64,000 nucleotides of DNA, taken from assembly GCF_003334305.1 (NCBI RefSeq), contig NZ_QOWS01000003.1. The stretch is one strand, 5' to 3'. Origin of the DNA: Escherichia coli (GTDB taxonomy: Bacteria; Pseudomonadota; Gammaproteobacteria; Enterobacterales; Enterobacteriaceae). Made by a program: the position numbers and the translations under genes. This document shows positions 1-45,708 of this stretch, in pieces. The notes beneath the pieces were generated by a model, which worked only from the letters and a program-made list of their open reading frames with translations, made no database searches and was not told the DNA's origin. The first letter of the stretch is position 1. Every line of letters begins with the position of its first letter.

Positions 1-1
1 C

Positions 2-1543
2 TCATGCATCCTCCATCGGCGTAAACAGGCTACTTTCCATCAGGCGTGGGTGCTTGATAATTGGACGGAAAGCCATATACGGCAGAATGTCGCGCTCAAT
101 CTCCACACCCGGCGCGATTTCAATTAATTCAACGCCTTCTGCCGTTAACTGGAATACTGCGCGTTCAGTGATATACAACACTTCCTGACCACTTTGCTGT
201 GCGTAGGCGGCGCTAAAAGTGATTTTTTCCACCTGGGTAACCAGTTTAGGGATTTGACCTGACTGGGTGATATGCAAGCCATCTGGCGTTACATCAATCT
301 TGCTACCTTTGGCGTCGAACGTGCCGCAGAACACCACTTTACGGGCGTTTTGCGCAATTTCGAGAAATCCGCCGGGGCCAATCAGATTGCCATTGAGATG
401 GGAGACGTTGACGTTACCGTACTGATCCATCTCTCCCATGCCGAGGAAGGTGATATCGATCCCTCCGCCACTGTAGAACTCAAATTGATCGAGTGATGGA
501 ATAATGGCATCGGCGTTGCGGGCACAACCAAACAGAGCATCATCAAGCATCATGCCGTTATGTACGCCTTGCTCGACGCTCAGCCATAAACTTTGGTAAG
601 GAACGCCTTCGCGCAGCGCTACGCCTGGAATACCGCCAGGAATACCAAAGCCAAAGTTGGTTGAAGCGCCAGCCACCAGTTCGCGTGCTGCCCGACGGGC
701 AATCAGGCGGCGCACCGGATGACTAACCAGTTCAATAGCGTCGTTAGAACTCAGACGGCGATGTTGACCGCTAATGGTCAGGTCGTAACCGCCAAGATAG
801 GTTTGCGGTTGTTCGCGGTGTTCAACGATGCCATCAACCAGAATGCCCGGTAATTTGACCCGGCGTGGTTCAATCGCGCCAGCTTCCAGCACATCGCGTA
901 CCTGTACGAACACTTTGCCGCCGCTGTTGTGTGCTGCCAGCGCCATGGAATAGCTATCCATATCAATCGCTTCTTCTTCAAGGCTGACGTTGCCTCGAGG
1001 ATCGGCATAAGTGCCACGCAAAATCGCGTAATCCACTTTGAAAGGGCGATAACGAAGTTTGGTTTCACCATCGATTTCAATCAGTTCTACCAGGTCGTCG
1101 GTAGTGCATTCATTCGACTTACCGCCGCCATTGCGTGGATCAACAAACGATCCCAGCCCAACGTGGGTAAAAAGCCCCGGACGTCCGGCGCCGATCTCCC
1201 GTAGCAGTGCCTGAATCACGCCACCAGGAAAGCAGTAGGCTTCAATCGTGTTATTTTTTACCAGCGCCTGCATTTTGGGCGACCAGGTAAAGTGCCCGGC
1301 AATAATGCGTTTGAGCATCTCTGCGTGCGCAAAACGATTAGTGCCTTTGCAGTCGCGATCGCCAATACCCAGCGAGTGGATTAGCGTCAGGTCGCGAGGG
1401 TGTCCGGTTTGCAGGAAACGCGCTTCAATAGCAGCCAGAATATGGTCCGCTTCCACCATACCGCCGCCGTTACCGCTAATAGCAATAGTCGCACCGTCCT
1501 GAATTTGCGCCGCCAGTGCCTCGGCGGTTGTTATCTTACGCAT
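2..1543 (-). CDS. family I CoA-transferase, fused alpha/beta (YdiF / acetate-CoA-transferase-like), 513 aa
   Basis: Complete ORF with ATG at 1541-1543 and stop at 2-4; glycine-rich motifs typical of CoA-transferases (ISGNGGG, GFGIPGG); last gene of a four-gene minus-strand cluster. Confidence 0.7.
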   Translation of the reverse strand: MRKITTAEALAAQIQDGATIAISGNGGGMVEADHILAAIEARFLQTGHPRDLTLIHSLGIGDRDCKGTNRFAHAEMLKRIIAGHFTWSPKMQALVKNNTIEAYCFPGGVIQALLREIGAGRPGLFTHVGLGSFVDPRNGGGKSNECTTDDLVELIEIDGETKLRYRPFKVDYAILRGTYADPRGNVSLEEEAIDMDSYSMALAAHNSGGKVFVQVRDVLEAGAIEPRRVKLPGILVDGIVEHREQPQTYLGGYDLTISGQHRRLSSNDAIELVSHPVRRLIARRAARELVAGASTNFGFGIPGGIPGVALREGVPYQSLWLSVEQGVHNGMMLDDALFGCARNADAIIPSLDQFEFYSGGGIDITFLGMGEMDQYGNVNVSHLNGNLIGPGGFLEIAQNARKVVFCGTFDAKGSKIDVTPDGLHITQSGQIPKLVTQVEKITFSAAYAQQSGQEVLYITERAVFQLTAEGVELIEIAPGVEIERDILPYMAFRPIIKHPRLMESSLFTPMEDA

Positions 1544-1552
1544 ACAATTTCC

Positions 1553-2335
1553 TTATTGATTATGGAAGCTTACGCTACTTTTTTCGGCAAAGGCGCGCGT
1601 CGCCTGCTGGCAATCCTGAGTGGCGGACATTAATCCGGCCAGTAGCTGGTGCGGGTAATCGGCATGTTTATTTTCCAGTGCCAGAATCAGTTGCTTAATA
1701 TGTGCAAGCGCCACCGGACCGCATTTTTCCAGCTGCGCTAACTGGTTCGCCATCCAGCTTTCCACCTGTTCTTTTTCTACCACTTCATCAATTAAATTCG
1801 CCGCCTGGGCTTCCTGCGCCGTCAGGCGTTTACCCAGCATCAGCATCTGGCGACCGACCACCGGACCAACCTGATTAAGCACACGTTCAATGCCCATCCA
1901 GCCAGGCACCATGCCGAGCATCACTTCCGGGTTAGAGAATTTCGCGCCGGGGCGGGCAATACGAATATCGCAGCACAAGGCAAGTTCAATACCACCGCCG
2001 ATGGTATGACCGTTGAGATTCGCAACGGTTAATTGGGGTAAGTTGCGCAGGCGATTAAAAACGTCATTACCGCGTTTAATCCATTTTCTGCCCATATCTA
2101 ATGGCGAATAGGCTGACCACGATTTAATATCGCCACCCGCACAAAAGAATTTATCGCCGGTTGCCGTTAATTCGACTAATCGTAATGTGGTGTCGTTTTC
2201 AATTTCATTTAAATAATGGTCGAGAGATTCGATCATCTCTTCGTTAATAGCATGACATTTATCTTCACGGTTCAATGTCAGGCGGCAGGAAGCTGCCGCT
2301 CTGCTGAACAGAACGGGTTGGTCACTCATGATCAT
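1553..2335 (-). CDS. enoyl-CoA hydratase/isomerase (crotonase superfamily), 260 aa
   Basis: ORF-track protein has crotonase-like core (GGGIELALCCDIRIA); 9-nt gap to downstream CoA-transferase; alternative ATG two codons downstream. Confidence 0.7.
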   Translation of the reverse strand: MIMSDQPVLFSRAAASCRLTLNREDKCHAINEEMIESLDHYLNEIENDTTLRLVELTATGDKFFCAGGDIKSWSAYSPLDMGRKWIKRGNDVFNRLRNLPQLTVANLNGHTIGGGIELALCCDIRIARPGAKFSNPEVMLGMVPGWMGIERVLNQVGPVVGRQMLMLGKRLTAQEAQAANLIDEVVEKEQVESWMANQLAQLEKCGPVALAHIKQLILALENKHADYPHQLLAGLMSATQDCQQATRAFAEKSSVSFHNQ

Positions 2336-2338
2336 TCC

Positions 2339-3181
2339 TTAACAATAATGCGCGATGCGATCGACGCTAATATCCAGCGTGCTGTTAATATCTTTCTGCC
2401 ACCAGTAAGGCGAGAATATTTCCAGTTCAATAGCACCATTAAATCCGGCGTTTTCAACCAGCCGACGAATTGACGGAATATTGATGACGCCATCTCCCGG
2501 CATACCACGGTCATTGACCAGATCAGTGGTCGGCACTAACCAGTCGGAAACATGAAACGCGAGGATGCGTTTTCCGGCACGCAGGATCTGACTGGCGAGA
2601 TCCGGGTCCCACCAAACATGGTAGACATCTACCGCCACGCCGAGGCCAAATTCGCCATCGGGATCGAGTTCATCACACCAGTCCAGCGCCTGACGTAACG
2701 TGCACAGACAGGAACGATCGGCTGCGGTCATCGGGTGCAGCGGCTCCAGTGCAATTGGCACGCCGACATCTTTCGAATGTGGCAGCAACTGGCGAATCCC
2801 TTGTTTCACTTGTTCCCGCGCTTCATATAGATCTTTAGTGCCCGTTGGCAGACCGCCAACCACCTGCATATAACAGGCGGCATTCAGTACAGCGGCGTCG
2901 TCCAGCGCCCGGCGGTTATCGTCAATCGCCAGTTTGCGCTCCGCCAGCGTCGGTGCGGTGTAGTAGGTGCTACGGCACAAACCGGAAACGTTCATCTTAC
3001 TGGCGGCAAGCTGACGGGCGATCTGCTGGAGATCTTCGCCCTGCAACTCCCTGCGCCAGGGGGCAATTGCGCCAATACCGCGTGCAGCGCAGGCATCAAT
3101 AATGGCGGGTAGCGGCGTTTTATAGCCCAGTGTTGCGGTATTGATACTGAATAAATCCGGGCGTTGTAACAGATCTCTCAT
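2339..3181 (-). CDS. sugar-phosphate isomerase/epimerase-like TIM-barrel protein (xylose-isomerase-like fold), 280 aa
   Basis: ORF-track protein resembles the AP-endonuclease-2 / xylose-isomerase-like TIM-barrel family; tightly packed in the same operon (3-nt gap to hydratase). Confidence 0.55.
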   Translation of the reverse strand: MRDLLQRPDLFSINTATLGYKTPLPAIIDACAARGIGAIAPWRRELQGEDLQQIARQLAASKMNVSGLCRSTYYTAPTLAERKLAIDDNRRALDDAAVLNAACYMQVVGGLPTGTKDLYEAREQVKQGIRQLLPHSKDVGVPIALEPLHPMTAADRSCLCTLRQALDWCDELDPDGEFGLGVAVDVYHVWWDPDLASQILRAGKRILAFHVSDWLVPTTDLVNDRGMPGDGVINIPSIRRLVENAGFNGAIELEIFSPYWWQKDINSTLDISVDRIAHYC

Positions 3182-3190
3182 GATTCAGCC

Positions 3191-3982
3191 TCAGAAGCGC
3201 GGCATACTTAAGCCGCCGTCGATGGCGACCGCCTGACCACAGGTGTAAATCAGTTTACCTTCCGCCATCGCGCGGACGGTGGAAGCAATATCAGCCGGAT
3301 AACCCCAACGTCCCCACGGCACCAGACCTTTGGCAATCAGTTCGTCGTAATAAGCCGTTGCCGGAATAGTCATATCAGTTTTGATGAGACCTGGGCGCAC
3401 TTCATAAACGCCAATTTGTTCATTACAAAGGCGAGCAGCAAATAGACGAGCAGCGGCAGAAACGGCGGTTTTGGCAATGGTGTATTCGCCGCGATTCATC
3501 GCCAGCATGATGGCGTTGATGGAACTGACGAAAATAATCGAGCGGTGCGGCAGTTCCGCTTCCGGTTTCGGCTGTGCCAGTAAGCGCTTACTGAATGCCT
3601 GAGCAAGGAAGAACGGCGCGCGGGTGTTAATGGCAATGTTTTGATCGAAGCTGTCTGGTTCGAGGTCGAGGAGGTCACCGCGTTTTTTCACTGAAATCCC
3701 GGCGTTATTGAGCAGGCAGTCCAGACGCCCCCACTGGTTTTGCGCCGCGTCGAGCATCTCTTCATGCAAGGAGAGATCGCCGACATCGGCAGGGAAGCAA
3801 ATGACTTCCACGCCTTCTGCCAAACATTCTTGTTGTGTGATATGCAGTTTTTCTACGCTGTCGGCATCGGGACGATCGTTAATCAGCAGGTTAAACCCGC
3901 CACGAGCAAGCTCCAGCGCACAGCCCTTTCCAATACCACGAGCGGCTCCGGTAATCACGGCAACTGGACGAGTGGATTTCAT
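3191..3982 (-). CDS. short-chain dehydrogenase/reductase (SDR), 263 aa
   Basis: N-terminal TGAARGIGKG Rossmann motif and Y-x3-K catalytic motif (YTIAK); first gene of the minus-strand cluster, divergent from the TetR gene. Confidence 0.75.
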   Translation of the reverse strand: MKSTRPVAVITGAARGIGKGCALELARGGFNLLINDRPDADSVEKLHITQQECLAEGVEVICFPADVGDLSLHEEMLDAAQNQWGRLDCLLNNAGISVKKRGDLLDLEPDSFDQNIAINTRAPFFLAQAFSKRLLAQPKPEAELPHRSIIFVSSINAIMLAMNRGEYTIAKTAVSAAARLFAARLCNEQIGVYEVRPGLIKTDMTIPATAYYDELIAKGLVPWGRWGYPADIASTVRAMAEGKLIYTCGQAVAIDGGLSMPRF

Positions 3983-4047
3983 ACAATAACCCTCTTTTGA
4001 ATATCGTTTTCTTTAGTGATGATTAGCTTGCGACTGGCAGGTAAAAA

Positions 4048-4071
4048 GATCAACCATCTAGTTGGTTGATC
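4048..4071. promoter_or_regulatory. 24-bp near-perfect palindrome GATCAACCAtctagTTGGTTGATC in the SDR/TetR divergent intergenic region; candidate TetR operator
   Basis: Read directly in sequence between the divergent SDR start (3982) and the TetR gene. Confidence 0.5.
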
Positions 4072-4191
4072 TGCGAGAGTGATCACAGGTAATTTGATAA
4101 CTCAATGAAATTACGACTTTTATCCTTTTTGCTGTCGCTGAGATCAAATCCGGTTATGATAGCCATCACGAAGAGGAAGTGGGGAAGTGGA

Positions 4192-4830
4192 ATGTATCTT
4201 GATACCAGTCACGCACAAAACCTGAAGGAAAAATTGCTGCTATGTGCGGTTAATGAATTTGCCGAATATGGTTATGAAGGGGCCAGAGTAGATAATATTG
4301 TTAAGGCAGCAGGGTGTAGTAAACAGACGGTTTATCACCACTTTGGTAATAAAGAAAATTTGTTTATTGAAGTACTGGAATATACCTGGAACGATATTCG
4401 CGAAAAAGAGAGAGAGCTTGACATTTCAGGGCTTTCTCCGGTTATTGCGATCGAGAAAATAATTGATTTTACTTGGGATTATTACATCAATAATCCGTGG
4501 TTTTTAAAAATTGTCCATAGTGAAAACCAAAGTAAGGGTGTGCATTATAAAAAATCAAAACGCCTCGCTGAAATTAACCATGCACATTTGCAGTCAATGG
4601 CTTCGTTATTAGAAGAAGGGCAGCGACAGAAAACCTTTAAGAAAGATATTGATCCCTTACAAATCAATATTAATATCGCCGCACTGGGTGCATATTATTT
4701 AATAAACCAGTACACACTGGGGATGGTTTATCACATTAGCATGGTTTCACCTGAGGCTTTGGAAGCCAGACGCAGAGTGATCAAAGAGACCATCCTGAGC
4801 TGGCTTTTGGTGAACCCTGCCCGTGGGTAA
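4192..4830 (+). CDS. TetR-family transcriptional regulator (about 212 aa from ATG 4192; ORF track offers upstream ATG 4105)
   Basis: TetR-type N-terminal HTH ([19 protein letters not shown]); GGAAG Shine-Dalgarno upstream of ATG 4192; the 29-aa extension from 4105 looks non-native; divergent from the catabolic cluster. Confidence 0.65.
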
Positions 4831-6607: not shown

Positions 6608-8020
6608 ATGGTAGATCAGGTAAAAGTCGTTGCCGATGATCAGGCTCCGGCTGAACAGTCGCTACGGCGCAATCTCACAAACCGACATATTCAGCTTATT
6701 GCCATTGGCGGTGCCATTGGTACGGGGTTGTTTATGGGGTCCGGCAAAACGATTAGCCTTGCCGGGCCGTCGATCATTTTCGTTTATATGATCATTGGTT
6801 TTATGCTCTTTTTCGTGATGCGGGCAATGGGGGAATTGCTGCTTTCGAATCTGGAATACAAATCTTTTAGTGACTTCGCTTCCGATTTACTCGGGCCGTG
6901 GGCAGGATATTTCACCGGCTGGACCTACTGGTTCTGCTGGGTTGTAACCGGTATGGCAGACGTGGTGGCGATCACGGCTTATGCTCAGTTCTGGTTCCCC
7001 GATCTCTCCGACTGGGTCGCCTCGCTGGCGGTGATAGTGCTGCTGCTGACGCTCAACCTTGCCACCGTGAAAATGTTCGGTGAGATGGAGTTCTGGTTTG
7101 CGATGATCAAAATCGTCGCCATCGTGTCGCTGATTGTCGTCGGCCTGGTCATGGTGGCGATGCACTTTCAGTCACCGACCGGTGTGGAAGCGTCATTCGC
7201 GCATTTGTGGAATGACGGCGGCTGGTTCCCGAAAGGTTTAAGTGGCTTCTTTGCCGGATTCCAGATAGCGGTTTTCGCTTTCGTGGGGATTGAGCTGGTA
7301 GGTACTACAGCTGCGGAAACCAAAGATCCGGAGAAATCACTGCCACGCGCGATTAACTCCATTCCGATCCGTATCATTATGTTCTACGTCTTCGCGCTGA
7401 TTGTGATTATGTCCGTGACGCCGTGGAGTTCGGTAGTCCCGGAGAAAAGCCCGTTCGTTGAGCTGTTTGTGTTGGTAGGTTTGCCTGCGGCTGCCAGCGT
7501 GATCAACTTTGTGGTGCTGACCTCTGCGGCGTCTTCCGCTAACAGCGGTGTCTTCTCTACCAGCCGTATGCTGTTTGGTCTGGCGCAGGAAGGTGTTGCG
7601 CCGAAAGCGTTCGCTAAACTTTCTAAGCGCGCAGTACCCGCGAAAGGGTTGACCTTCTCGTGTATCTGTCTGCTCGGCGGCGTGGTGATGTTGTATGTGA
7701 ATCCTAGCGTGATTGGCGCGTTCACGATGATTACAACCGTTTCCGCGATTCTGTTTATGTTCGTCTGGACGATTATCCTTTGCTCGTACCTGGTGTATCG
7801 CAAACAGCGTCCTCATCTGCATGAGAAGTCGATCTACAAGATGCCGCTCGGCAAGCTGATGTGCTGGGTATGTATGGCGTTCTTTGTGTTCGTGATCGTG
7901 CTGCTGACACTGGAAGATGACACTCGCCAGGCGCTGCTGGTTACCCCGCTGTGGTTTATCGCGCTGGGGTTGGGCTGGCTGTTTATTGGTAAGAAGCGGG
8001 CTGCTGAACTGCGGAAATAA
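6608..8020 (+). CDS. cycA: D-serine/D-alanine/glycine:H+ symporter (APC family)
   Basis: 470-aa multi-pass membrane protein recognised as CycA; conserved fklB-cycA-ytfE order. Confidence 0.95.
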   Translation: MVDQVKVVADDQAPAEQSLRRNLTNRHIQLIAIGGAIGTGLFMGSGKTISLAGPSIIFVYMIIGFMLFFVMRAMGELLLSNLEYKSFSDFASDLLGPWAGYFTGWTYWFCWVVTGMADVVAITAYAQFWFPDLSDWVASLAVIVLLLTLNLATVKMFGEMEFWFAMIKIVAIVSLIVVGLVMVAMHFQSPTGVEASFAHLWNDGGWFPKGLSGFFAGFQIAVFAFVGIELVGTTAAETKDPEKSLPRAINSIPIRIIMFYVFALIVIMSVTPWSSVVPEKSPFVELFVLVGLPAAASVINFVVLTSAASSANSGVFSTSRMLFGLAQEGVAPKAFAKLSKRAVPAKGLTFSCICLLGGVVMLYVNPSVIGAFTMITTVSAILFMFVWTIILCSYLVYRKQRPHLHEKSIYKMPLGKLMCWVCMAFFVFVIVLLTLEDDTRQALLVTPLWFIALGLGWLFIGKKRAAELRK

Positions 8021-8064: not shown

Positions 8065-8727
8065 TCACTCACCCGCCAGCGCGCGTGGGAACAGCACATT
8101 GTTTTCCAGACTGATGTGATCCATCAGGTCATCAATCAGTTCATTAATACCGTTATACATCGCTTTCCAGGTGGTGCAGGCTTCTGGCGGCGGTGTGACG
8201 TTATTGGTAGTGTGTTTGATCACTTCCAGCAGTTCGCCCGCTTCATCGTGCTCGCTTTCCATTACGCTGATTGGCCCCATTGCCTGGCTGCCCATGCCTT
8301 GTTTGATCATCGGGAAGAGGATCTGCTCTTCTTTCATCATGTGGCTGGAAAGCTCTTCATGCAGCATAGTCAGGTATTTTGTCAGCCCTTTTGGCACGCT
8401 CGGTTTGTCGGCGTGAACGCGCTCGACTTTAGTCGCTTGCAGGATCAGCTCCGGCAGCTGCTCGCGGTGACGATCGTGGTAGCGCACGATGATATGGTCA
8501 ATGATTTCTGCCAGCGGGGCGCTACGCCAGTCTTTCTCAATCGGTTGTTCAGCAAGCTTTGCCAGTTCAGCTTCAATGACCTCAACATCCAGTTCTTTAC
8601 GTGCCGCCGCGCGCGCCAGCGTTTGCTTACCGCCACAGCAGTAATCCATATCATATTTACGAAACAGAGCTGAAGCGCGAGGAATAGAGAGCGCCAGTTC
8701 ACCTAAAGGTTGGTCGCGATAAGCCAT
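8065..8727 (-). CDS. ytfE: iron-sulfur cluster repair di-iron protein
   Basis: 220-aa protein [33 protein letters not shown]... recognised as YtfE; NsrR-type palindrome upstream. Confidence 0.95.
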
Positions 8728-8753
8728 AGCTGATACCTCATTCTTAAAAAGAT

Positions 8754-8776
8754 AAGATGTATTTTAAATACATCTT
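8754..8776. promoter_or_regulatory. NsrR-type operator, perfect palindrome AAGATGTATTTTAAATACATCTT upstream of ytfE
   Basis: 23-bp perfect inverted repeat about 27 bp upstream of the ytfE start; matches the known NsrR site type for this NO-responsive gene. Confidence 0.75.
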
Positions 8777-8834
8777 TAAGGCAAAAGCTATAACCCTTAC
8801 GTAGCAGAGGCTTATTTAACTCACTGCCAGCGTG

Positions 8835-9809
8835 TCAACTTTCTGAGACAGATTCAGTTAAAGGCTTTTCTGGTTTTGCTCTGACCGCGATGACCACGCC
8901 AATCACTAACAGCGCGATACCGCTCAGCGTCATTAGCGGCGGCATTTGCTGGCGGAGTAAAAAGGTGTACAGCAAACCTGCCAGCGTTTCGAAAACAATC
9001 AGCGGCCCGAGAATCACTGTCGGTAATCGCTGGCTGGCGACGTTCCAGCAGAGTGCGCCAACCCATGAGCAAAGCACGGCTATCGCAATCATCAGACTAA
9101 TAAACACCAGCGGACGGGGGCCAAAAGGTAAGGAGAAGTCCGGCGTTTGTATATTCAGCCAGTAACAGGCGACGAGATAGCCGATGAGAGAAACCGGCAG
9201 CGTGACCAGCGCCTGCGCCGTCGCCCACATCATCGGATGTTTGTCGGGATTTTCCCGCAGCCAGCGGGCGTTGCGCAGGGCATACCATGCCCAGCAAACC
9301 ACGGAAACTAACGCCAGCACGATGCCAGAGGTATAACGTGCCCAGTCAAAATCGGGGAGTCCGTGGTTTAACTCAGCAATATTCACACACGCCAGGCCGA
9401 TGCCAATACAAATCAGTGCCGGGGCGAGTTTTCCCCATGCGAGTTTGCCGTCGCGCTGGCTATAAAGCAGATTGGCAAAAACGGGAATCACCACCGGCAG
9501 GGTGCCGATAATCATCGTGGAAACAGGCGCGCCAGTACGTTGAATGGCACTGGCAAGGCAGAAGTAATAAATGAGGTTGCCCATCATAGTGAGCATCAAG
9601 GCGGTAAGCCAGTCCCGACGCGCCAACTGACGCAGACGCACGCGTCCCAGCCAGGCAATGGGTAGCGCAATTAACCCTAACGCCAGATAACGCCCCATCG
9701 ACTGCAACATCGCCGGGTATTCCGGCACGATCAACGGCCCGACAAAAATAAGCCCCCACATCAACCCTGCTAACAGGGCGTACAGCACGCCGCTAATCAT
9801 TACTGGCAT
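8835..9809 (-). CDS. ytfF: inner-membrane DMT/EamA-family transporter
   Basis: 324-aa hydrophobic ten-helix-type protein; position matches ytfF. Confidence 0.85.
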   Translation of the reverse strand: MPVMISGVLYALLAGLMWGLIFVGPLIVPEYPAMLQSMGRYLALGLIALPIAWLGRVRLRQLARRDWLTALMLTMMGNLIYYFCLASAIQRTGAPVSTMIIGTLPVVIPVFANLLYSQRDGKLAWGKLAPALICIGIGLACVNIAELNHGLPDFDWARYTSGIVLALVSVVCWAWYALRNARWLRENPDKHPMMWATAQALVTLPVSLIGYLVACYWLNIQTPDFSLPFGPRPLVFISLMIAIAVLCSWVGALCWNVASQRLPTVILGPLIVFETLAGLLYTFLLRQQMPPLMTLSGIALLVIGVVIAVRAKPEKPLTESVSES

Positions 9810-13310: not shown

Positions 13311-13499
13311 CAGGGACATCCTTTTATTATCGGGAATACGAAAGAAAAGGGAGAATAAACGTCTTACTTATAGAACAGTGAAGAATGCCACAATTTTACG
13401 CTTTGAAAATGATGACACTATCACAGTTGGCGCATTCATTAACGATAGGGTATAAGTAAAACAATAAGTTAACACCGCTCACAGAGACGAGGTGGAGAA

Positions 13500-14240
13500 A
13501 TGTTAGATCAAGTATGCCAGCTTGCACGGAATGCAGGCGATGCCATTATGCAGGTCTACGACGGGACGAAACCGATGGACGTCGTCAGCAAAGCGGACAA
13601 TTCTCCGGTAACGGCAGCGGATATTGCCGCACACACCGTTATCATGGACGGTTTACGTACGCTGACACCGGATATTCCGGTCCTTTCTGAAGAAGATCCT
13701 CCCGGTTGGGAAGTCCGTCAGCACTGGCAGCGTTACTGGCTGGTAGACCCGCTGGATGGTACTAAAGAGTTTATTAAACGCAATGGCGAATTCACCGTTA
13801 ACATTGCGCTCATTGACCATGGCAAACCGATTTTAGGTGTGGTGTATGCGCCGGTAATGAACGTAATGTACAGCGCGGCAGAAGGCAAGGCCTGGAAAGA
13901 AGAGTGCGGTGTGCGCAAGCAGATTCAGGTCCGCGATGCGCGCCCGCCGCTGGTGGTTATCAGCCGTTCCCATGCAGATGCGGAGCTGAAAGAGTATCTG
14001 CAACAGCTTGGCGAACATCAGACCACGTCCATCGGCTCTTCGCTGAAATTCTGCCTGGTGGCGGAAGGACAGGCGCAGCTGTACCCGCGCTTCGGACCAA
14101 CGAATATTTGGGACACCGCCGCTGGACATGCTGTGGCCGCAGCTGCCGGAGCGCACGTTCACGACTGGCAGGGTAAACCGCTGGATTACACTCCGCGCGA
14201 GTCGTTCCTGAATCCTGGGTTCAGAGTGTCTATTTATTAA
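13500..14240 (+). CDS. cysQ: 3'(2'),5'-bisphosphate nucleotidase
   Basis: 246-aa protein recognised as CysQ (inositol-monophosphatase fold, WLVDPLDGT motif). Confidence 0.95.
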
Positions 14241-15111: not shown

Positions 15112-15318
15112 ATGAAAATTTTCCAACGGTACAACCCACTTCAGGTGGCGAAGTACGTAAAGATCCTGTTCCGTGGACGGTTATACATCAAGGACGTTGG
15201 CGCTTTTGAATTTGATAAGGGTAAGATTCTTATCCCAAAAGTGAAGGATAAGCTGCATTTGTCAGTGATGTCCGAAGTTAACCGTCAGGTTATGCGTCTG
15301 CAAACAGAGATGGCTTAA
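15112..15318 (+). CDS. ytfK: small DUF1107 protein YtfK (68 aa)
   Basis: Protein [30 protein letters not shown]... recognised; ATG 15112 with AGGAGA Shine-Dalgarno; ORF-track start 15046 is an upstream extension. Confidence 0.85.
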
Positions 15319-15341: not shown

Positions 15342-15370
15342 ACGGCTCCTGATTCAGGAGCCGTTGATGT
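15342..15370. terminator. hairpin terminator between convergent ytfK and ytfL
   Basis: ACGGCTCCTGATTCAGGAGCCGT stem-loop downstream of both genes. Confidence 0.5.
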
Positions 15371-15379
15371 TTCTGGGGG

Positions 15380-16723
15380 TTACGCGACGCTTTCTTCTTT
15401 ATCTTTAGCGTCAGGCAGTTTTGGCGAAAGGGCGGTGGCCTTGCTGTCGATCCGGGTCACCAGCAGCTGGTCGATGCGGTAGTTATCGATATCCACCACT
15501 TCAAATTTGTAGCCGGCGAATTTCACCGAATCGGTGCGTTTCGGGATCTTACGCAGCATAAACATCATAAAGCCGCCGATGGTTTCGTAGTTGCCCGACT
15601 GCGGGAATTCGTCAATATCCAGCACGCGCATGACGTCGTCAATTGGGGTGCCGCCGTCAATCAGCCATGAGTTCTCATCACGGGCGACAATCTGCTCTTC
15701 CAGCCCCTGACCGACCAGATCGCCCATCAGCGTGGTCATCACGTCGTTGAGGGTGATGATCCCCACCACCAGCGCGTACTCGTTCATGATCACCGCGAAG
15801 TCTTCACCTGCGGTTTTAAAACTTTCCAACGCCTCTGAAAGGGTTAACGTATCCGGCACAATCAGCGTGTTGCGAATTTGTACGCCGCTGTTCAGTGCCA
15901 GGCTTTGGTTAGCCAGCACGCGGTTCAGCAGGTCTTTAGAATCGACATATCCGATGATGTGGTCAATATCTTCATTACAGACGAGAAACTTAGAGTGCGG
16001 ATGTTCCGCCACCTTATTCTTCAGGCTTTGCTCATCTTCGTGGAGATCAAACCAAATCACGTTTTCACGCGGTGTCATTGAAGACGGAACGGTACGGGAT
16101 TCCAGCTCAAAGACGTTTTCAATCAGCTCGTGTTCCTGTTTACGTAACACGCCCGCCAGCGCACCGGCTTCCACTACCGCGTAGATGTCATCAGAAGTGA
16201 TGTCATCTTTACGTACCATTGGCAGTTTGAAAATACGGAAGATCATGTTCGCCAGGCCGTTGAAGAACCACACCAGCGGGGTGCATACGTACAGGCAGAA
16301 GCGCATCGGGTTGATGATACGCAAAGCTACCGCTTCTGGCGCAATCATACCGATGCGTTTCGGGGTTAAATCCGCAAACAGGATAAACATGCCAGTCACT
16401 AACGAGAAAGAGAGAATAAAGCTCAGTTGCTCAGAGAGTTCTGCCGACATATAGCGGGAGAACAGGCTGTGAAAAGCTGGAGAAAATGCCGCATCACCGA
16501 CGATACCGCCGAGAATCGCCACTGCGTTCAGACCGATTTGGACCACGGTAAAGAACATGCCGGGATTTTCCTGCATATTCAGAACGCGTTGGGCATTTAT
16601 ATTGCCTTCATCAGCCAGCAGTTTAAGTTTGATTTTGCGTGAGGCGGCAAGTGAGATCTCAGACATCGAGAAGAACGCACTTACAGCGATCAAGCAGAGT
16701 ATGACTAAAATACTGTTTAACAT
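15380..16723 (-). CDS. ytfL: inner-membrane protein with DUF21/CBS/CorC-HlyC domains
   Basis: 447-aa protein recognised as YtfL; conserved position between ytfK and msrA. Confidence 0.9.
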   Translation of the reverse strand: MLNSILVILCLIAVSAFFSMSEISLAASRKIKLKLLADEGNINAQRVLNMQENPGMFFTVVQIGLNAVAILGGIVGDAAFSPAFHSLFSRYMSAELSEQLSFILSFSLVTGMFILFADLTPKRIGMIAPEAVALRIINPMRFCLYVCTPLVWFFNGLANMIFRIFKLPMVRKDDITSDDIYAVVEAGALAGVLRKQEHELIENVFELESRTVPSSMTPRENVIWFDLHEDEQSLKNKVAEHPHSKFLVCNEDIDHIIGYVDSKDLLNRVLANQSLALNSGVQIRNTLIVPDTLTLSEALESFKTAGEDFAVIMNEYALVVGIITLNDVMTTLMGDLVGQGLEEQIVARDENSWLIDGGTPIDDVMRVLDIDEFPQSGNYETIGGFMMFMLRKIPKRTDSVKFAGYKFEVVDIDNYRIDQLLVTRIDSKATALSPKLPDAKDKEESVA

Positions 16724-16899
16724 ATCTTATCCGACCTTTCAGGCCAGATCCTCGGAAGGGGAAGTTGATTAATTTGTGTGAAATACACATTGAAAGCCGA
16801 TTCGAAGAAAGTGAACCGGCATTTTCAGTGGCTAGTATAGCGTAAGGTACTGTAAAGTCGCCAGAGGGTTAAAATTCAGACTGCTGATAAATGCAATAC

Positions 16900-17000
16900 T
16901 GCCTGATGCGCTATGCCGATCAGGCCTACGCAGTCCCTGCAATATATTGAATTTGGACGATTTTGTAGGCCTGGTAAGGCATTCACGCCGCATCTGGCAT
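16900..17000. repeat. REP/BIME cluster between msrA and ytfL
   Basis: GCCTGATGCG...CGATCAGGC and GTAGGCCTGGTAAGGC...GCCGCATC motifs. Confidence 0.75.
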
Positions 17001-23734: not shown

Positions 23735-23745
23735 TAATAAAAGCA

Positions 23746-23770
23746 CGCCACCTTCGGGTGGCGTTGTTTT
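23746..23770 (+). terminator. intrinsic terminator after tamA-tamB-ytfP
   Basis: CGCCACCTTCGGGTGGCG hairpin followed by a T-rich run. Confidence 0.75.
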
Positions 23771-24058
23771 ATGCGATGTATCTCGCGATTTTTTTTTGTA
23801 ACTTTTCCATCTTTTGCTTTTCTCTCCGAGCCGCTTTCCATATCTGCAATCGCATAAAAAACTCTGCTGGCGTTCACAAATGTGCAGGGGTAAAACGGGG
23901 GCACGCTTTGAACGGTGAGTATGAGTGAGGTCGGCTAACTTCCAGCAAGTGGCTATGAACAGCAAAATGGTGGTCGGGTTTGCTTGTTCTTACCGTTCAA
24001 GCCTTGCAACCGCTGAGAATAATGATGGTGGAATAGAGAGTTTATTTATCGCGGGCAT

Positions 24059-24097
24059 AAAAAAACCCTTACTAACCGAAGCCCGGCGTTCAGGGTT
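24059..24097 (-). terminator. intrinsic terminator after ppa
   Basis: On the minus strand a GC-rich hairpin followed by a 7-U run, about 15 bp past the ppa stop. Confidence 0.65.
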
Positions 24098-24113
24098 ATT
24101 GCGCTAGAAGAAC

Positions 24114-25917: not shown

Positions 25918-26075
25918 TATGCCTGATGCCGATTCGTAGGCCGGATAAGGCGCTCGCGCCGCATCCGGCGGTGGTGCGCTGAAGCCTGATGCGACGCTTA
26001 CCGCGTCTTATCATGCCTACGAGTTCGGTGCTCTGTGTAGGCCGGATAAGGCGTTCACGCCGCATCCGGCAGTGG
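25918..26075. repeat. REP/BIME cluster (about four palindromic units) downstream of ytfQ
   Basis: Repeated GCCTGATGCGACGC and GTAGGCCGGATAAGGCG...GCCGCATCCGGC units. Confidence 0.85.
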
Positions 26076-32344: not shown

Positions 32345-32445
32345 TGCCGGATAAGGCGTTTACGCCGCATCCGGCATTTGAGCATAGTGCCTGATGCGAC
32401 GCTTGATGCGTCTTATCCGGCCTACAGGTGCACCGCATCCGGCAA
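32345..32445. repeat. REP/BIME cluster between mpl and yjgA
   Basis: GCCGGATAAGGCGTTTACGCCGCATCCGGC and GCCTGATGCGACGC units. Confidence 0.85.
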
Positions 32446-42539: not shown

Positions 42540-42806
42540 CGCCATAGATGCTACGAATATTATTGGATTCTCCTTATTATTTGCGGCGCTTTTTTCACTT
42601 ACCGGAGGTTATATGGAACCTGATCCCACGCCTCTCCCTCGACGGAGATTAAAACTTTTCCGGTAAGCCCGTCTTTTCACGGCGTTACCGGATGCGTAAG
42701 GCCGTGACGTTTTAACGTCCCTGCTCAGCTTTATTACCTTCAGGTAAGGCTTCGCCACGCCTGAAGACATTTCTGTACTGTTTCAGACAGTGCGGAGGGA
42801 CTCCTT
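42540..42806 (+). promoter_or_regulatory. mgtA 5' leader (Mg2+/proline-responsive attenuation region containing mgtL)
   Basis: About 265-nt untranslated leader between the PhoP-dependent promoter and the mgtA start, containing the proline-rich leader ORF. Confidence 0.7.
42613..42666 (+). CDS. mgtL: mgtA leader peptide MgtL (17 aa, proline-rich)
   Basis: ATG 42613 to TAA 42664-42666 encodes [17 protein letters not shown] inside the mgtA 5' leader. Confidence 0.8.
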
Positions 42807-45503: not shown

Positions 45504-45561
45504 AGAATAAACTGGGCACGATAGCCCCGATTCAGATTGCAGACAAAGTAAGCTTTGTTCA

Positions 45562-45655
45562 TGCCGGATGCGGCGTAAATGCCTTATCCGGCCAACAAAT
45601 TCAATAAATTGCAGGAATCACGTAGGCCTGATAAGCGTAGCGTATCAGGCGATTT
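45562..45655. repeat. REP/BIME cluster between mgtA and ridA
   Basis: GCCGGATGCGGCGTAAATGCCTTATCCGGCC and GTAGGCCTGATAAGCG units. Confidence 0.8.
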
Positions 45656-45708
45656 TGCGTTTGTCATCAGACTTAATCCGGGCATGATAGCCCGGATTTC
45701 CATCAAGA

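Follow-up and report, generated by a model that had tools for sequence, protein, structure and literature searches.

The 23-bp palindrome at positions 8754-8776 of the window (the whole stretch of Escherichia coli chromosome analyzed here, 64,000 nucleotides in length) is almost certainly the known NsrR operator of ytfE, as judged from its sequence and orthology; binding of NsrR and the response to nitric oxide (NO) are taken from the literature for the K-12 and CFT073 alleles of this site. An NsrR operator upstream of ytfE is already known and, as such, ordinary. The sole novelty concerns the allele: of the three common natural alleles of the operator, the window has the rarest, which is one of the two that are perfectly symmetric.

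An 11-1-11 palindrome upstream of ytfE

The 23-mer AAGATGTATTTTAAATACATCTT was found exactly at window positions 8754-8776, inside the 107-bp intergenic region between ytfF and ytfE. It is composed of AAGATGTATTT-T-AAATACATCTT and forms a perfect 11-1-11 inverted repeat, the arms of which (8754-8764 and 8766-8776) are 100% complementary and separated by a spacer of 1 nt; on the ytfE sense strand, the same positions read AAGATGTATTT-A-AAATACATCTT. The A of the ytfE start codon is at 8727 on the minus strand, and the palindrome occupies the interval 27-49 bp upstream of this ATG, as had been originally predicted in stating that a perfect 23-bp palindrome is located directly upstream of ytfE. The promoter-distal half-site, AAGATGTATTT (8766-8776, minus strand), was assigned by alignment with K-12, and the promoter-proximal half-site (8754-8764, minus strand), which reads AAATACATCTT on the sense strand and AAGATGTATTT on the opposite strand, was assigned from the sequence and the repeat search. 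We annotated the operator as a whole, without a strand, on the evidence of the repeat search, a weight matrix, orthology, and alignment. The identity of the regulated gene was likewise borne out: the open reading frame at 8065-8727 (minus strand) scored 416.7 bits against NCBIfam NF008221 (cutoff, 254), and its product is identical to K-12 YtfE, a di-iron iron-sulfur cluster repair protein of the RIC family, at 220 of 220 residues.

For comparison of the palindrome with experimentally defined NsrR sites, we used a symmetrized weight matrix derived from 25 distinct 11-1-11 NsrR sites of CFT073 (PMC5320621, Table 4), from which the ytfE site was left out. The window site scored 29.5 of a possible 31.2 bits, compared with 26.2 bits for the best training site, and this was by far the top score in the 64 kb. 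In 300 simulated first-order Markov versions of the window, the maximum matrix score per window had a mean of 13.95 and an SD of 2.3, and the largest value was 24.0. Further, the site fits the published NsrR consensus gATGyAT-N5-ATrCATc (Rodionov 2005), its half-site matches the AAGATGYATTT-type NsrR consensus, and its architecture is the 11-1-11 arrangement given for NsrR operators in PMC5320621. It is orthologous to the ytfE NsrR sites of K-12 and CFT073, the latter defined by ChIP-seq, and differs from each by 1 base. Four features of an E. coli-type NsrR operator (the 11-1-11 repeat, the half-site sequence, location and orthology, and a cognate repressor in the matching genomes) were found. 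The proposal that the palindrome is of the NsrR type, a known class of site, agrees with both the curated and the experimental sites, to which the match is near-perfect. When the three ytfE alleles were scored with the same matrix, the values were 29.5 bits for the window, 30.2 bits for K-12, and 31.0 bits for CFT073; at sense position 7, the matrix shows a slight preference for C over T.

The intergenic DNA is A/T-rich, and the window contains a second perfect 11-1-11 palindrome, as might be expected if the repeat were a functionless product of base composition. The probability that this is so is negligible. Perfect 11-1-11 palindromes of any sequence occurred in only 5 of the 300 simulations (mean, 0.017 per simulated 64-kb window), no match to the 23-mer with up to 3 mismatches was seen in 100 dinucleotide-preserving shuffles, and the matrix score is far above that of every simulation. 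In addition, the sequence is conserved across genera and in at least 120 species (see below). Conservation and scores together already refute the idea of a chance palindrome.

The second perfect 11-1-11 palindrome (15342-15364, ACGGCTCCTGA-T-TCAGGAGCCGT) is rich in G+C and bears no relation to the NsrR motif. It lies between the convergent genes ytfK (which ends at 15318) and paeA (which ends at 15380) and is probably a terminator-like hairpin shared by the two. Two weaker matrix matches were considered as further NsrR sites and rejected, both lying within ∼1.3 SD of the simulated mean maximum of 13.95. The first (53318-53340; 17.0 bits) straddles the ARG boxes of argI, an overlap apparently due to the A/T-rich, palindromic nature of the two motifs, and the second (54611-54633; 15.75 bits) is in the first codons of yjgN. 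The ARG boxes are arranged in tandem at 53310-53348 (AATGAATTAAAATTCAAT with 0 mismatches and TATGGATGATTATTCATT with 2 mismatches) upstream of the ornithine carbamoyltransferase gene (argI, 52280-53284, minus strand) and constitute an ArgR operator.

Promoter context and alternative readings

Next to the operator, we noted the following elements of the ytfE promoter, all on the minus strand. A Shine-Dalgarno sequence, GAGG, was read at 8736-8739, and the surrounding motif (A/C)GAGGTA is kept in each of the seven ytfE-type promoters included in the 12-sequence alignment described below. Two candidate -10 hexamers were picked out by eye: TAAAAT (8761-8766), at the center of the dyad, and, as an alternative, TATCTT (8749-8754), which abuts the proximal end of the operator and the counterpart of which is TATATT in Citrobacter, Kluyvera, and Klebsiella. 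A scan of positions 8650-8900 for consensus sigma-70 promoters returned no match at the stringency of the scan, and we found no paper in the literature with a mapped ytfE transcription start. Bodenmiller and Spiro, in 2006, reportedly described the repeat as overlapping the -10 element. We infer that the operator overlaps the ytfE core promoter.

The mechanism that would follow is the one described for NsrR in the literature, where it figures as an iron-sulfur repressor of the Rrf2 family that senses NO. A dimer of holo-NsrR would bind the two 11-bp half-sites via its winged helix-turn-helix domains. With the operator overlapping or adjoining the core promoter, 27-49 bp ahead of the ATG, bound NsrR would thereby keep RNA polymerase off the promoter, and ytfE would be silent. 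Nitrosylation of the cluster by NO would then release NsrR from the DNA and allow ytfE to be transcribed.

The palindrome could also be read as an RNA hairpin, acting either as an intrinsic terminator of the upstream, co-oriented ytfF or as a structure in the 5′ leader of ytfE. The location would suit this, as ytfF is on the same strand and its stop codon is 59 bp away from the palindrome; the perfect stem of the window strain has a calculated stability of −7.7 kcal/mol, and, 5 nt past the stem, a SNP at 8748 generates a T5 run that is absent in K-12 (TTATT). However, the stem is A/U-rich with just 2 G-C pairs, and a terminator scan of positions 8650-8900 detected no terminator-like site; a Rho-independent terminator, defined by a G+C-rich stem and a U-tract, was rejected on these grounds. 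The calculated stability is only −3.0 kcal/mol for the majority K-12 allele, which means that a hairpin is not a conserved feature of the species. Further, distant taxa keep the same primary sequence before unrelated genes (hmp and tehB), and with respect to ytfE it is found in either orientation; no compensatory changes accompany it. Retention in this form fits a protein-binding site and not an RNA structure. Overall, we consider the hairpin reading very improbable.

Equally little probability attaches to the view that the site is an operator for which the main binder is a protein other than NsrR, such as FNR, Fur, IscR, or NarL/NarP. It is true that fnr and fur mutants show derepression of ytfE, but no FNR or Fur sites have been recognized in the ytfE promoter, and these effects are thought to be indirect (reviewed in PMC9268430). 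Similarly, NarP sites have been predicted upstream of enterobacterial dnrN/ytfE genes (Rodionov 2005), but, with up to 3 mismatches allowed, the ytfF-ytfE intergenic region contained no match to the NarL/NarP 7-2-7 arrangement (TACYYMT-NN-AKRRGTA), and the number of such matches over the window (28 observed versus 29.8 expected) is that of chance. The 12-sequence alignment did reveal a conserved block upstream of the operator, AAGGGTTATA (8789-8798, minus strand; AAGGGGTAT in other genera), which resembles one NarL/NarP heptamer. In the form AAGGG(T/G)TAT, this block is located ∼15-25 bp upstream of the operator in the ytfE promoters of Escherichia, Citrobacter, Kluyvera, Pluralibacter, and Klebsiella, and its AGGGTTA (compare AKRRGTA of NarL/NarP) is the sole conserved heptamer-like block. 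The palindrome itself has the half-site sequence and the 11-1-11 spacing of NsrR sites, and NsrR remains our assignment.

Operator alleles, repressor, and chromosomal setting

To count the operator alleles within E. coli, we used megablast with 33-nt queries and seeds only on an exact 28-mer covering the whole palindrome, such that each match represents an exact 23-mer. Among 5426 complete E. coli genomes, 4176 (77%) have the K-12-type imperfect site, with C in one half and T in the other, 960 (18%) have the C/G-perfect site of the CFT073 type, and 121 (2.2%) have the T/A-perfect site of the window. The description of the site as clean and perfect consequently applies to the window strain and does not extend to the species, in which the site of K-12 and of the 77% majority is imperfect. 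The variable position of the operator corresponds to the degenerate “y” of gATGyAT. Base 8770 (T on the sense strand and A on the plus strand) is the single difference between the window operator and that of K-12 (sense C), and it is this base that makes the repeat perfect. In a published alignment (Rodionov 2005, Fig. S2), the five closest genera (E. coli, Klebsiella, Salmonella, and two more enterobacteria) all read AAGATGCATTT in the distal half, and the T at 8770 is therefore probably a derived C-to-T change that removed the one asymmetry, and the K-12-type site is probably ancestral. Two symmetrizing changes occur in E. coli, the distal C-to-T change of the window and a proximal A-to-G change in the CFT073 type.

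We presume that the rare window allele acts like the common ones. If symmetry, or the identity of the base at position 7 (C or T), were to alter the affinity of NsrR, thresholds of NO for ytfE induction would be lineage-specific; it is conceivable, albeit rather unlikely, that the three alleles set different thresholds across E. coli lineages and so represent natural cis-regulatory tuning of a nitrosative stress gene. The allele census is of modest added value, in that it provides a natural series for relating operator symmetry or the y position to NsrR affinity and NO threshold. Beyond this and the correct annotation of the site, a textbook NsrR operator of high affinity, the finding has little significance.

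The nsrR gene is outside the window and is annotated ∼35 kb from ytfE in strain H15 (L129, 20631-21056), which is 100% identical to window positions 1-25000, and ∼27 kb from ytfE in E62 (L004, 10827-11252). The NsrR of the matching genomes scored 291 bits (cutoff, 182) and is identical to K-12 NsrR at 140 of 141 residues, the exception being a P70S substitution. We considered whether the repressor and the operator have co-varied and rejected this: the codon for Ser-70 is present in at least 1252 of the 5426 genomes and is a common polymorphism, and, because its carriers are ten times more numerous than the 121 carriers of the T/A operator, there is no specific association between the two.

With respect to the wider chromosomal setting, window positions 1-25000 align without a break, and at 100% identity, with the corresponding DNA of H15, A7, 41, and WL164. 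The window is colinear with E62 only at ∼4.8-17.7 kb, and its sequence past 45.5 kb corresponds to that of neither H15 nor E62; the E62 annotations of IS609 and rpsF-rplI are not applicable to window positions 1-4830. The local gene order is cycA (6608-8020, plus strand), ytfE (minus strand), ytfF (8835-9800, minus strand), qorB, ytfH, and cpdB. The region before ytfB (1-4830) is an accessory cluster encoding an acyl-CoA:acetate/3-ketoacid CoA transferase, an enoyl-CoA hydratase, a sugar-phosphate isomerase/epimerase, a 3-ketoacyl-ACP reductase-like SDR, and a TetR/AcrR regulator (4192-4830), which is intact in the window and split by IS609 in its E62 counterpart. At this place, K-12 has yjfZ and only a pseudogene remnant of ytfA. 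We further note that two sets of genes present in K-12 are absent from the window: ytfI, from the interval between cysQ and ytfJ, which overlap at 14230-14240, and the chpS-chpB toxin-antitoxin pair, from the interval between ytfP and ppa, which are separated by ∼380 bp (23735-24113). The mgtA-ridA intergenic region (45504-45708) is a hotspot for insertion of mobile elements and contains IS621 in H15 and a gene for a 151-amino acid transposase in E62; the window has neither, and ridA, pyrI, and pyrB directly follow mgtA. Matches above the Rfam gathering score were obtained for the Mg riboswitch of the mgtA leader (42598-42713), two copies of naRNA4 (25939-26017 and 32345-32422), ES239 (13311-13433), STnc450 (16785-16842), ES036 (16922-16964), and Ysr276 (60047-60241), all of which this part of the E. 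coli chromosome would be expected to contain.

Conservation and comparison with known systems

In a published alignment of the ytfE/dnrN upstream regions of six enterobacteria, the NsrR site is the main conserved block (Rodionov 2005, Fig. S2). Our own alignment comprised 12 motif-carrying promoter sequences from 11 taxa, seven of which are of the ytfE type in the same orientation and two of which have ytfE in the opposite orientation; of the remaining three, one precedes hmp and one precedes a tehB-like gene. Across the 12 sequences, only the polymorphic position 7 and the central base vary among the 23 operator positions. Outside the operator, just two isolated upstream columns are invariant, and the operator is the sole contiguous block conserved to this extent.

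We then widened the comparison by scanning 100,044 species, each represented by one genome, with the strict pattern AAGATGYATTTNAAATRCATCTT, which was found in at least 120 species. By our own calculation, roughly 0.1-2 matches would be expected, with ∼0.07 for equal base frequencies and no more than a few if the DNA were very A/T-rich. Enterobacterales, Acinetobacter, Legionella, Methylobacter, Vibrio, and Bacillaceae are represented among the matches listed. The window-type pattern AAGATGTATTTNAAATACATCTT, in which the central base is free, accounts for 48 of the 120 loci among the matches listed, mostly from Acinetobacter, Legionella, and Bacillaceae, and the other loci are of the C/G-perfect (23) or mixed (49) type. 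At all six loci sampled, the pattern adjoins NO stress genes: ytfE in E. albertii and Serratia, hmp in Acinetobacter, tehB in Photorhabdus, divergent nsrR-like and hmp genes in Virgibacillus, and, in Legionella, an nsrR-like gene and a putative globin gene (identified by eye, with no NCBIfam match). In these loci, AAGATGTATTTNAAATACATCTT is located before hmp in Acinetobacter and Virgibacillus and between the putative globin gene and the nsrR-like gene in Legionella. The nsrR-like Rrf2 proteins encoded at the distant loci scored 139-142 bits, which is under the curated NsrR cutoff of 182. At the sequence level, the recurrence of AAGATGTATTTNAAATACATCTT amounts to strong cross-phylum conservation of the operator.

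Of the systems described previously, the closest is that of K-12 MG1655, in which the ytfE site reads AAGATGCATTTAAAATACATCTT on the ytfE sense strand and shares 22 of 23 bases with the window site; the two occupy the same locus and are equally far from the ytfE ATG. At sense position 7, the base is C in K-12 and T in the window, such that the K-12 repeat contains one asymmetric pair. The 200 bp of flanking DNA are identical between the two except for two other SNPs. The SNP at 8748 relative to K-12 is situated between the operator and the Shine-Dalgarno sequence, where the sense strand reads ATCTTTTTAAG in the window and ATCTTATTAAG in K-12. In CFT073, the ytfE site (AAGATGCATTTAAAATGCATCTT) is at the same locus and is likewise a perfect 11-1-11 palindrome, but its symmetry is achieved via C/G at position pair 7/17, whereas that of the window is achieved via T/A. 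The CFT073 site falls beneath an NsrR ChIP-seq peak and scores highest among the NsrR sites of that genome, and ytfE of CFT073 is induced 69.6-fold under nitrate-derived NO (PMC5320621). According to reviews and reporter studies, ytfE is repressed by NsrR and induced by NO, and the PytfE promoter is in use as a reporter and biosensor for NO (PMC7336997). The NsrR operators of distant hosts share the window-type pattern but serve other target genes. In contrast, the NsrR of Streptomyces, which has been crystallized in complex with hmpA1 operator DNA, recognizes a different sequence and does not bind to E. coli-type sites (PMC9338935).
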